Source: Candidatus Cloacimonadaceae bacterium
GTDB taxonomy: Bacteria > Cloacimonadota > Cloacimonadia > Cloacimonadales > Cloacimonadaceae
Length of the DNA: 24,648 nt
Direction of reading: 5' to 3'
Assembly: GCA_046485025.1 (NCBI GenBank)
Contig: JAWOHU010000111.1
Span: 1-24,648, forward strand
Positions 16,841-19,660 of the stretch are shown here, piece by piece. The translations under genes and the position numbers were made by a program. The notes under the pieces were generated by a model. That model did no database searches, had not been told where the DNA came from, and worked only from the letters and a program-made list of their open reading frames with translations. The number at the start of each line of letters is the position of its first letter. Positions within the stretch are counted from its first letter, which is position 1.

Positions 16841-16916
16841 GCATCTTTAGCTCAGCTGGTAGAGCAACTGACTCTTAATCAGTGGGTCCGGGGTTCGAGT
16901 CCCCGAAGATGTACCA
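16841..16916 (+). tRNA. tRNA-Lys (anticodon CTT)
   Basis: Cloverleaf: acceptor GCATCTT/AAGATGT, D-arm GCTC/GAGC, anticodon arm ACTGA-CTCTTAA-TCAGT, T-arm CGGGG-TTCGAGT-CCCCG, and an encoded ACCA end; 76 nt. Confidence 0.98.
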
Positions 16917-16967: not shown

Positions 16968-17013
16968 AGCGGTAATTTGCTCTTTGCTCCGCTTTGTAAA
17001 TGTGCTAAAGTGC
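16968..17013 (+). ncRNA. SAM-II/SAM-V-like riboswitch aptamer (H-type pseudoknot) upstream of metK
   Basis: P1 AGCGG/CCGCT (16968-72/16989-93); loop 1 TAATTT; P2 GC(T)CTTTGC (16979-87) with GC(T)AAAG(T)GC (17004-13), leaving U17006 unpaired; loop 3 TTGTAAATGT. This matches the remembered SAM-II pattern UGAUUU...UUGC...AAAU...GCUAAA, and the downstream gene is SAM synthetase. Confidence 0.75.
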
Positions 17014-17022
17014 TTTTTTCAG

Positions 17023-17048
17023 AGCCGGCTTTAGCGTCGGCTTTTTTT
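17023..17048 (+). terminator. Intrinsic terminator in the metK leader (riboswitch expression platform)
   Basis: Stem AGCCGGC/GTCGGCT, loop TTTAGC, then a T7 tract, ending 22 nt before the metK start. Confidence 0.75.
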
Positions 17049-17070
17049 ATTTAAGAGAAAGGAGAAGAAA

Positions 17071-18255
17071 ATGACAGCTTTACATCCTCAGGTTGACACA
17101 GCTAAAAACGAATTCGTGTTCACCTCCGAATCAGTCTCGGAAGGGCATCCCGATAAGGTTTGCGACCAGATTTCCGATGCCGTTCTGGATGAGTATCTCA
17201 AGGCTGACCCCAGCTCCAGGGTTGCCTGTGAAACGCTTGCCACCAAGAACCAGTTGATTATTGCCGGAGAAATCACTTCCAAACATAAGATAGATATCAA
17301 GGACATAGCGCGCCGGACCATCAGAGAAATCGGCTACACCGAACCCTGCCAGGGTTTTGATGATGACTGCAATATCTTTAACCTTCTGCACAAACAGGAA
17401 GGCGCACTGAAGGCAATCGGAGACCGGGAAAACACAGGAGCCGGAGACCAGGGACTGATGTTTGGCTATGCCTGCAATCAGACCAAACACTACATGCCCA
17501 TTCCCATTGCCCTGGCGCATAAACTTCTGCAGAAACTGGCTGAAGTCAGAAAAAACGGTCAGATTCCACAGATTCTGCCCGATGCCAAGTCTCAGGTTAC
17601 CTTCCGTTTTATCAACCGCCTGCCCGTCGAGCTTCAGACCCTCGTCATCTCGACTCATCATAAGCAACTTGATGAAAAGCAGTTTGGAGAACTGAAGGAC
17701 GCCATCAACAAGTTAGTGGTCATCCCTTCCTTAAATGAAATTGAAAACGAGAGCATTCATCAGTTTGCCGTCAACAACTGCCTTGTGAAAATCAATCCGC
17801 TGGGCATGTGGACAGATGGCGGCCCTGCCAATGACACAGGCCTGACAGGCAGAAAAATCATTGTTGATACTTACGGCGGCTGGGCTCAGCACGGCGGAGG
17901 AGCTTTCTCAGGCAAAGACGCCACCAAAGTCGACAGAAGCGCTGCCTATATGGCACGCCACATTACCAAAAGCGTTGTGGCATCCGGACTGGCAGAGGAA
18001 TGCCTGATTCAGTTCAGTTTTGTGATCGGAGAAATGAGACCGGAGTCCATAATGGTGGACACTTACGGCAGCGGCAAACTGCCTGACCAACAAATCGAAA
18101 AACTCATCATGGACAACTTTGACTTGACAGTAAAAGGAATCATCGACTATTTAGATTTGCGCAGACCCATCTTCAAACAAACTGCCAATTATGGTCATTT
18201 CGGCAGACTGGATTTGGATTTGAGCTGGGAAAAAGTGAAAGAAATTAAATTCTAA
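17071..18255 (+). CDS. metK: S-adenosylmethionine synthetase
   Basis: FTSESVSEGHPDK, GAGDQGLMFGYA, GLTGRKIIVDTYGG and GGGAFSGKDATKVDRSAAY. Confidence 0.98.
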   Translation: MTALHPQVDTAKNEFVFTSESVSEGHPDKVCDQISDAVLDEYLKADPSSRVACETLATKNQLIIAGEITSKHKIDIKDIARRTIREIGYTEPCQGFDDDCNIFNLLHKQEGALKAIGDRENTGAGDQGLMFGYACNQTKHYMPIPIALAHKLLQKLAEVRKNGQIPQILPDAKSQVTFRFINRLPVELQTLVISTHHKQLDEKQFGELKDAINKLVVIPSLNEIENESIHQFAVNNCLVKINPLGMWTDGGPANDTGLTGRKIIVDTYGGWAQHGGGAFSGKDATKVDRSAAYMARHITKSVVASGLAEECLIQFSFVIGEMRPESIMVDTYGSGKLPDQQIEKLIMDNFDLTVKGIIDYLDLRRPIFKQTANYGHFGRLDLDLSWEKVKEIKF

Positions 18256-18288: not shown

Positions 18289-19101
18289 ATGACAGACAAT
18301 TTATTTGAGCAGTTAAAGCGCAGCCGTCCGTTCTTTCTGATTGCCGGACCCTGTGTCATAGAAGATGAAAAAACTATGATGCAGACGGCAGAAACTCTGG
18401 TCAGGCTTACCTCCGAACTATCGTTGCCCTTTGTCTTCAAAGCTTCCTTTCTGAAGGCAAACAGGACTTCTCCTGACTCGTTTCGCGGTCCGGGTTTGCA
18501 AGAAGGTCTGCAGCTGCTGCAGAAAATCAAGACTACTTTTTCTGTTCCGCTTCTGACTGACGTGCACGAGACTACTGATATTAATGCTGTTCAAGAAGTT
18601 GTAGATATCATCCAGATTCCCGCTTTTCTGAGCAGACAGACGTTGCTGATTCAGGCTGCCGCGCAGACCGGCAAGATAGTCAATCTGAAAAAGGGACAAT
18701 TCATGGCTCCGGAAGACATGCGCTCTGCCGCAGCCAAGGTTACTTCCATGCATAATCAGCAGGTCCTTCTGACCGAGAGAGGCACCAGTTTCGGCTATCA
18801 CAACCTGGTGGTGGACTTCCGCAGTTTTCAGATTATGCATCAAATCGGTTTTCCGGTGGTCTATGATGTTACGCACAGTTTGCAGAAACCTTCTGTAACT
18901 GATAAATCCGGCGGCTCTCCGGAGTTCGTGCAGATGATGGCTCAGGCCGCTCTGGCAACGGGATTTGTCGATGGACTTTTTATAGAGACACATCCTCATC
19001 CTGAAAAAGCTCTGAGTGACGCTGCCAGTATGCTGGCTCTGGACCAGCTTCCTGCCCTGCTGAAAAGCTGCATCAAAATTAAAGAAGCATTACAGGATTA
19101 A
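18289..19101 (+). CDS. kdsA: 3-deoxy-D-manno-octulosonate 8-phosphate synthase
   Basis: IAGPCVIE, KANRTS, QIPAFLSRQT, KKGQF, ERGTSFGY, DVTHS and FIETHP. Confidence 0.96.
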   Translation: MTDNLFEQLKRSRPFFLIAGPCVIEDEKTMMQTAETLVRLTSELSLPFVFKASFLKANRTSPDSFRGPGLQEGLQLLQKIKTTFSVPLLTDVHETTDINAVQEVVDIIQIPAFLSRQTLLIQAAAQTGKIVNLKKGQFMAPEDMRSAAAKVTSMHNQQVLLTERGTSFGYHNLVVDFRSFQIMHQIGFPVVYDVTHSLQKPSVTDKSGGSPEFVQMMAQAALATGFVDGLFIETHPHPEKALSDAASMLALDQLPALLKSCIKIKEALQD

Positions 19102-19102
19102 T

Positions 19103-19660
19103 ATGAATAAAGCGATAAAACCAACTGTGGACTGGCTGTCCATTCAGCTTGTCATCTTCGACTGTGACGGCGTGCTGAGTGACGGCAAAATCATTTATGG
19201 TTCAAATTCTAATCTTGAGACCATGGAACTAAAGAACTTCAATGCTCACGACGGCATGGGTTTTATGCTGCTGCACACGGCAGGTCTGCTTTCCGCTGTC
19301 ATTACAGGCAGGACTTCCTCCGCTTTGTCTAAACGCTGCAAAGACCTGCGCATCAAGCATGTGTTTCAGAAAGTTCAGAACAAGCTCGAAAAAGCAGACA
19401 AACTGCTGACAAAACTCAATCTTTCCTGGAGCCGGGTTGTCTATATGGGCGATGACTGGAATGACATTCCCTGCATGCAGCAAGCTGCTTTCTCAGCCTG
19501 CCCGTCTGATGCCATGCCCGAAATTCAGAAGCTGGCGGATCTGGTGACGGAAAGAAAAGCCGGCGAAGGCGCTGTGCGTGAACTGATAGATTTTATCCTC
19601 AGGAAAAAAGGCGTCTATGAACAGGTCGTCGATTCCTATCTGCGGGAAATCTCGCTCTGA
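19103..19660 (+). CDS. kdsC: KDO 8-phosphate phosphatase (HAD family)
   Basis: FDCDGVLSDG, FNAHDGMG, ITGR, YMGDDWND and GEGAVRE; follows kdsA. Confidence 0.93.
   Translation: MNKAIKPTVDWLSIQLVIFDCDGVLSDGKIIYGSNSNLETMELKNFNAHDGMGFMLLHTAGLLSAVITGRTSSALSKRCKDLRIKHVFQKVQNKLEKADKLLTKLNLSWSRVVYMGDDWNDIPCMQQAAFSACPSDAMPEIQKLADLVTERKAGEGAVRELIDFILRKKGVYEQVVDSYLREISL

Follow-up and report, generated by a model that had tools for sequence, protein, structure and literature searches.

A putative SAM-II-class riboswitch with a transcription terminator upstream of metK in a Cloacimonadaceae bacterium

Upstream of the S-adenosylmethionine (SAM) synthetase gene metK in a Cloacimonadaceae bacterium, the leader at positions 16968-17048 of the stretch of DNA analysed here (24,648 nucleotides, hereafter the window) reads as a riboswitch of the SAM-II class, taken in the wide sense that includes SAM-V, which would turn transcription off in response to SAM; we give this reading of the sequence a probability of roughly 0.87. 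We file the leader as a diverged variant of that class because its architecture and core are SAM-II-like while its scores fall below the cut-offs of RF00521, RF01726 and RF01826, which places it outside all three Rfam families by their own standards. The case is built on the anatomy of the sequence, its conservation, its association with particular genes, and covariation in P1, in P2a and in the antiterminator; from these we infer SAM as the ligand. Weighed against a SAM-II assignment were the sub-cut-off Rfam scores, a variable nucleotide at the position equivalent to A20, the lack of a promoter-like site between the tRNA and the aptamer, and the fact that our main alignment (A3) was fitted to P1.

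The features of the region, in window positions, are as follows.

16841-16916, + strand: tRNA-Lys(CUU) gene, directly upstream of the leader (Rfam tRNA model, 70.6 bits)
16968-16972, + strand: P1 5' strand AGCGG, partner 16989-16993, pairs checked base by base
16973-16978, + strand: L1, UAAUUU, whose U run corresponds to the major-groove triple former in SAM-II/V
16979-16987, + strand: P2a 5' strand GCUC followed by P2b 5' strand UUUGC, within the P1 loop
16989-16993, + strand: P1 3' strand CCGCU, partner 16968-16972
16994-17003, + strand: L3, A-rich linker UUGUAAAUGU, 10 nt, with AAAUGU nearly invariant
17004-17013, + strand: switching strand GCUAAAGUGC, the P2b/P2a 3' strand and also the antiterminator 5' strand, U17006 bulged
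17021-17048, + strand: intrinsic terminator from the terminator scan (stem 17021-17029/17036-17044, loop 17030-17035, U run 17042-17048)
17024-17029 / 17036-17041, + strand: G+C core of the terminator
17022-17035, + strand: antiterminator 3' strand, containing CUUUAGC at 17029-17035 and overlapping the terminator 5' arm and loop
17059-17064, + strand: Shine-Dalgarno sequence AAGGAG of metK, read from the sequence, 6 nt before the ATG, downstream of the terminator and outside the switch
17071-18255, + strand: metK, SAM synthetase (Pfam S-AdoMet_synt N, M and C domains PF00438, PF02772 and PF02773, E 1e-34 to 1e-61)

The aptamer and terminator occupy the 154-nt spacer between the tRNA-Lys(CUU) gene and metK. 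Positions 16968-17013 can form an H-type pseudoknot, its 3' tail base-pairing into the loop that P1 closes (UAAUUU-GCUC-UUUGC-U). P2b joins U16983-C16987 to G17004-A17009 and leaves U17006 bulged, while P2a joins G16979, C16980 and C16982 to C17013, G17012 and G17010, with one U.U mismatch. The switching strand 17004-17013 has a second possible partner in 17022-17035, in addition to 16979-16987. In particular, CUUUAGC at 17029-17035, which comprises the terminator's last stem pair and its loop, is perfectly complementary to GCUAAAG at 17004-17010. The switch design is therefore compact, since the terminator loop itself is the antiterminator partner. Behind metK, at 18289-19660, are a DAHP_synth_1 family gene (KDO-8-P synthase-like, 270 aa) and a HAD phosphatase gene (KdsC-like); both lie on the same strand with tight spacing and may be expressed by read-through from metK.

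The folding energies fit a transcriptional OFF platform, in which one strand is common to the aptamer and the antiterminator and an intrinsic terminator follows. The terminator has an energy of -13.2 kcal/mol (z = -3.95) and the 12-bp antiterminator (17004-17015 with 17022-17035) one of -13.0 kcal/mol, so that in the window the two are isoenergetic, and they are mutually exclusive. The minimum free energy fold of a nascent RNA ending at 17035 consists of P1 plus the antiterminator. Nearest-neighbour folding without pseudoknots gave no significant z-score for the aptamer alone, which we regard as uninformative rather than negative, as the method is blind to the pseudoknot. A terminator-like hairpin with a T run follows 116 of the 126 unique homologous leaders (matches listed plus 25 relatives).

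With SAM bound, the pseudoknot would hold 17004-17013, the terminator at 17021-17048 would form, and transcription would stop before metK. When SAM is scarce, 17004-17013 would instead pair with 17022-17035 as the antiterminator, which would be complete before the 3' arm of the terminator is transcribed, and RNA polymerase would read into metK. Within the pocket, the bulge at U17006 would meet the adenine of SAM and the U run of L1 would lie in the major groove; this triplex role is carried over from the SAM-V structure (PMC6061858). We infer SAM binding, triplex formation and the kinetic order of folding as parts of this mechanism. The preliminary description of this DNA had proposed that all the pseudoknot pairings could be satisfied with the UUU of L1 and an unpaired U in GCUAAA, that GCTAAAG at 17004-17010 is complementary to CTTTAGC at 17029-17035 across the terminator loop and stem, and that pseudoknot and antiterminator compete for the same strand. 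Every pair was verified base by base, the complementarity is exact with all coordinates right, and the competition for 17004-17013 is backed by covariation as well as by the folding of the nascent RNA.

To follow the motif outside the window, MetK searches in 40 relatives yielded 30 loci. Of 26 relatives with a MetK identity of 60% or more, 25 have the motif in front of metK, each time accompanied by the complementary terminator segment; at the remaining locus (L025) there is no upstream sequence. The consensus of the relatives is AGCGG-yRAUUU-GCyC-UUUGCU-CCGCU-..-AAAUGUGCUAAAG-..-GCCGGCUUUAGC.GCCGGC-U run. A pattern search of species-representative genomes, in which only ATTT, TTGCTCCG and AAATKTGCTAAA were fixed, found the exact pattern in at least 120 species-level genomes from several phyla; hosts among the matches listed are Cloacimonadota, Smithella and other Syntrophales, Omnitrophota, Gemmatimonadota, Hydrogenedentota and a few others. 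The P1 5' strand was left unspecified in the search pattern, and [G/A][C/U]GG is nevertheless found 0-2 nt before [G/A]AUUU in 142 instances among 145 loci (120 matches listed plus 25 relatives). The 10-nt length of L3 is kept in 116 of 126 instances (matches listed plus 25 relatives), and the A-UUU of L1 is invariant in 66 sequences. The presence of [G/A]AUUU in all 126 unique instances is to be read with the extraction regex in mind, which required it.

The motif lies in the 5' leaders of genes of methionine/SAM metabolism, mainly metK and also MetY-type and PALP genes. A downstream open reading frame is present in 119 of 129 unique instances and encodes MetK in 94 of these 119 (matches listed plus 25 relatives), which gives the metK association put forward in the preliminary description a comparative footing. 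Six Omnitrophota loci have what looks like a MetY-type PLP enzyme downstream, one confirmed by Pfam (Cys_Met_Meta_PP, E 9e-133) and five judged by their N-terminus, and one locus has a PALP enzyme. Several of the loci without metK directly behind the motif contain a second, more diverged aptamer in tandem. Tandem pairs 100-240 nt apart were seen at L033, L066, L067, L085, L121, L124, L145, L163, L164 and L169; the second aptamer is mostly the more diverged one, with P1 as GGCGGG/CCGCC, or as GGCAG/CUGCC with a compensatory change. Tandem SAM-II arrangements are already known (PMC9481103). We also observed a GGGCAG box a few bases after the terminator U run at L012, L019, L021, L183-L185, L188, L191 and others; it occurs in Cloacimonadota leaders both before metK and of the GCUAAGG type described below, and is absent from the window's own leader.

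A covariance model, R1, was built from 66 diverse sequences of the subgroup with P1 as its only structure. With R1 the window scores 65.5 bits, and of 68 further family genomes sampled, 67 proved to carry the motif. Four R1 matches scoring 22-25 bits (L170, L171, L173 and L174) lack GCUAAA or the pseudoknot and were not counted as aptamers. Covariation was counted on the 107-sequence alignment A3 made with R1. Here P1 shows compensatory changes at all five pairs and its inner four pairs are never unpaired (n = 107); the changes include GC to AU, CG to UA and GC to CG, and the outer pair occurs as five pair types. The A3 covariation score of 0.145, against 0.068 +/- 0.005 for shuffled alignments (reached in 0 of 500) and at most 0.092 for slid controls, comes from an alignment that favours P1 by having been fitted to it, and from related sequences that are not independent. 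The four UUGC pairs of P2b never vary in A3 and so carry no information for or against pairing, although such invariance is as expected of a ligand pocket; the fifth position (18':A50) does vary. P2a columns 26-28 covary with columns 107-109 in A3.

Two independent permutation tests, each with one representative per tail class, bear on the two partners of the tail. For the P2a complementarity between loop and tail, the native mean was reached in 25 of 5000 permutations. For the aptamer tail against the 5' half of the terminator, the native energy was -11.7 kcal/mol against -10.0 +/- 0.35 kcal/mol for permuted pairs, and none of 5000 permutations reached it. The antiterminator covaries visibly between lineages: AAAGCAC stands opposite GUGCUUU in Smithella, AAAGUGC opposite GCGCUUUGGC in Syntrophales and AAAAAGC opposite GCUUUUUAGC in Omnitrophota, and AAAGGC opposite GCCCUUU is a further example. 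As for the pseudoknot of the SAM-II class, then, its pairs are verified in the window, P1 and P2a covary and P2b is invariant.

Curated models scarcely register this motif. The cut-offs are 36 bits for RF00521 (SAM_alpha), 44 bits for RF01726 (SAM-II long loop) and 41 bits for RF01826 (SAM_V). On the window leader RF00521 gave no match at E <= 10 and RF01826 gave no match, while RF01726 aligned end to end at 15 bits against its 44 (E 0.6-1.6). At the Rfam gathering thresholds, only the tRNA was matched in the window, and a permissive search added weak sRNA-like matches driven by the terminator, along with RF01726 at 15 bits. No Rfam family reached its cut-off on the motif in 18 diverse representative loci. 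The kinship with SAM-II is nonetheless real despite these scores, as judged by cross-retrieval between R1 and RF00521, the shared GCUAAAg and the invariant core. In an Omnitrophota and a Gemmatimonadota whole genome the best RF00521 match is this motif, at 20-22 bits against 36, and a Desulfobacterota leader with an RF00521 score of 36.2 bits (cut-off 36) is in turn picked up by R1 at 28 bits. The consensus 3' halves of RF00521 and RF01726 both carry GCUAAAg, as does the window.

The preliminary description had anticipated that standard models could miss this leader, and the Rfam results bear this out. It had counted a lack of conservation and covariation in relatives as evidence against the switch; both were found. 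Two of its remarks need revision. SAM-II/V were said often to act on translation, although SAM-II riboswitches are already mostly transcriptional (Huang and Lilley 2018, PMC6061858) and a terminator platform is thus nothing unusual, and UAAUUU in place of UGAUUU was taken as a possible lineage variant, although it is ordinary within the subgroup (36 AAUUU and 90 GAUUU, matches listed plus relatives).

The ligand core can be compared with the solved structures. The SAM-V contacts are the U-run triples, the bulged U47, and A48-A50 with A18-U20 (PMC6061858), and the SAM-II contacts are U10, U11, A20, U21, U22, U46, A47 and A49 (PMC11508383). By these references (PMC6061858, PMC11508383), the SAM-contacting nucleotides are invariant in the subgroup except for the equivalent of A20 (SAM-II) or A18 (SAM-V). 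The invariance of AUUU, UUGC and GCUAAA is partly due to the collecting pattern and regex having fixed them. The A20/A18 equivalent is U16983 in the window, and across the subgroup it is A in 65, U in 40 and C in 21 instances (matches listed plus 25 relatives). Judging from these sequences, this subgroup may recognise the methionine end of SAM differently, and A, U or C all seem to be acceptable to the SAM-II pocket at a position where the solved structures show a ligand contact.

A related motif in the same genome has a change in the core. R1 detects, at 52.5 bits, another aptamer copy in this genome (G000) on contig 25 at 2519-2577 of the - strand (loci L161/L162/L184), which reads GCUAAGG instead of GCUAAAG, the third A of GCUAAA having become G. 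Its terminator loop, CCUUGC, carries the compensatory change, which lends further support to the antiterminator; by a crude regex tally, 16 of 18 GCUAAGG paralogues have complements of the CCUU type in the loop and none of the 18 the CUUU type. The variant is carried by 7 of 98 family genomes (this one and six others) and by 21 metagenome contigs, sometimes as tandem copies. No copy in front of metK was found: MetK is among none of the 71 open reading frames on the metagenome contigs and stands behind none of the genome copies inspected. The genes behind it encode a family of small proteins of 70-100 aa, FGE-sulfatase-like proteins, an ARPP-1 protein and unknown proteins. The copy on contig 25 precedes a 76-aa open reading frame and faces a Schlafen-like helicase matching PADLOC PDC-S41 (E 4.5e-260), and the GCUAAGG neighbourhood also holds an McrB-like protein matching PADLOC PDC-M26A (E 1e-48), so that candidate phage-defence genes are close by. 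Proteins downstream of the paralogue had no matches in PHROGs.

It is tempting to see the metK switch as a member of an uncatalogued SAM-II subclass that was copied and re-used in the same genome, including the GCUAAGG copy near the candidate defence genes, although we hold this broader proposal to be doubtful. If the paralogue still senses SAM, its genes would switch on when SAM falls, and the paralogue could link SAM sensing to functions outside methionine metabolism; if the proposal is true, possibilities include the sensing of phage SAM-destroying enzymes, or a coupling of defence to methyl-donor supply.

The variable position in the core raises the question of the effector. The same fold and switch might respond to something other than SAM alone: to S-adenosylhomocysteine (SAH), to both, as SAM/SAH riboswitches do, or to another adenosyl-sulfur compound. 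Behind this proposal is the lack of conservation at the nucleotide contacting the amino-acid end of SAM in SAM-II/V: the window has U there, the subgroup A, U or C. The GCUAAGG paralogue adds to the proposal by changing the partner A to G. Even so we consider it improbable. The genes regulated here are metK and metY, classic SAM-repressed genes, and no ahcY, the usual target of SAH regulation, was seen directly downstream. Moreover, the nucleotides of the U:A.U triples around the sulfonium, which account for the selectivity of SAM-V for SAM over SAH (PMC6061858), are invariant in the subgroup. SAM itself remains the putative effector.

The upstream tRNA gene must also be accounted for. A tRNA-Lys(CUU) gene precedes the motif on the same strand in the window (L001) and in 24 of 25 related family loci (ARAGORN), and the gap from tRNA to P1 is only 10-12 nt in five relatives (L012, L013, L016, L019 and L021). 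A sigma-70 scan found no promoter-like site between the tRNA and the aptamer. An AT-rich "TATAGA" box before P1 in some relatives was considered as a -10 element and dropped, since it would set the start site within P1, and since the space behind the tRNA is no more than 10-12 nt in five relatives. From the same-strand tRNA in 24 of 25 loci and the short gap in five, we conclude that in this family the leader is probably co-transcribed with tRNA-Lys, starting as the 3' trailer of the tRNA transcript. If so, the riboswitch terminator doubles as the terminator of the tRNA gene, and the switch decides on run-on into metK.

The same observations, the frequent tRNA with its sometimes very short gap and the promoter-like site that was not found, could be turned into a case that the leader binds no small molecule at all, being a protein-binding or processing element tied to tRNA-Lys whose hairpin is simply the terminator of the tRNA gene. 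We find this more improbable still, because in other phyla the motif goes with metK or metY and not with a tRNA (across 18 diverse loci Rfam finds a single tRNA, 2 kb away from the motif), and because a plain tRNA terminator leaves the covarying antiterminator and the SAM-II/V pocket-like core unexplained.

Elsewhere, the aptamer may be joined to a different platform. A sister family in the same class (f14, two genomes) has aptamers before metK at L177 1568-1633 (-) and L178 232-288 (+), which end in or just before AAAAAGGAG, a short way upstream of the ATG; L177, which RF01726 scores at 27.9 bits, has GCUAAAAAGGAG 8 nt before the ATG. This arrangement suggests, as far as sequence can, a translational, SAM-V-like platform in the sister family. 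That the window's aptamer, like that of SAM-V, controls translation or mRNA decay and not transcription termination is the least probable of the alternatives, for although the aptamer 3' strand in f14 sits in or just before AAAAAGGAG upstream of the metK ATG, with no terminator noted in the genome that has GCUAAAAAGGAG, the window's Shine-Dalgarno sequence at 17059-17064 is 46 nt downstream of the aptamer and not complementary to it, a canonical terminator with seven U's stands between the two, and terminator-like hairpins follow 116 of 126 homologues (matches listed plus 25 relatives).

If the SAM-responsive OFF switch is as we describe it, a SAM-II-type riboswitch missed by Rfam 15 would account for the regulation of metK in Cloacimonadota, Syntrophales, Omnitrophota and Gemmatimonadota, and a new seed alignment (A2/A3) would recover the at least 120 genomes found in this analysis. 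In our literature search, no paper came up that names a switch of the SAM-II type in Cloacimonadota, or one upstream of metK in these phyla.

Among known systems, SAM-II (RF00521; Corbino et al. 2005; structure 2QWY, Gilbert et al. 2008, as cited in PMC6061858) shares with the window the H-type pseudoknot (P1, an L1 with AUUU, P2a/P2b, and an L3 rich in A), conserved strands UUGC and GCUAAAG, the bulged U, the usual intrinsic terminator making a transcriptional OFF switch (PMC6061858), and methionine/SAM genes downstream. The RF00521 consensus 3' half is UUAAAcAAgUCGCUAAAg, compared with UGUAAAUGUGCUAAAG in the window. The subgroup differs from SAM-II in its P1, a near-invariant 5-bp GCGG/CCGC helix; in the P2a of the Cloacimonadota, which has only 3-4 bp with a mismatch; in the A20 equivalent, which is U in the window; in its main target, metK rather than metX, metY or metA (Leyn 2014, PMC4239095); and in its hosts, Cloacimonadota, Syntrophales, Omnitrophota and Gemmatimonadota.

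Of the three curated models, the one for the SAM-II long-loop family of Bacteroidetes and marine sequences (RF01726; Weinberg et al. 2010, PMC2864571) fits the window best. Its consensus, GaGG-AaaGAUUUG..GAUUGCAA-CCuC..AAAAUGCUAAAgCA, may be set against AGCGG-UAAUUUG..UUUGCU-CCGC..AAAUGUGCUAAAGUGC in the window, which is without the hairpin insert in the P1 loop that defines the long loop and has a P1-to-GAUUU linker of 1 nt. With regard to SAM-V, GUGCUAAA of the window matches exactly the SAM-V 3' strand G43-A50 as we presume it to read, above all at nucleotides 44-46. SAM-V (RF01826; Poiata et al. 2009; 6FZ0, PMC6061858) further resembles the window in its third-strand U run, its A/U-U-U-G-C strand and its G-C-U(bulge)-A-A-A. 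SAM-V is translational, however, with a 2-bp P2a over the Shine-Dalgarno sequence and an extra P3, whereas the window has a terminator platform, no P3, and a Shine-Dalgarno sequence that P2a does not overlap, 46 nt downstream of the aptamer.

A parallel in circumstance is the beta-proteobacterial metXZ element, which was missed by the then-current SAM_alpha model (Leyn et al. 2014, PMC4239095) and was later called canonical SAM-II (McCown et al. 2017, PMC5473149). It belongs to another lineage and differs in its genes (metX/metZ) and in its conserved blocks, but it too sets a pseudoknot, an alternative helix and a terminator before methionine genes, and it provides a precedent for a SAM-II riboswitch that had been missed.
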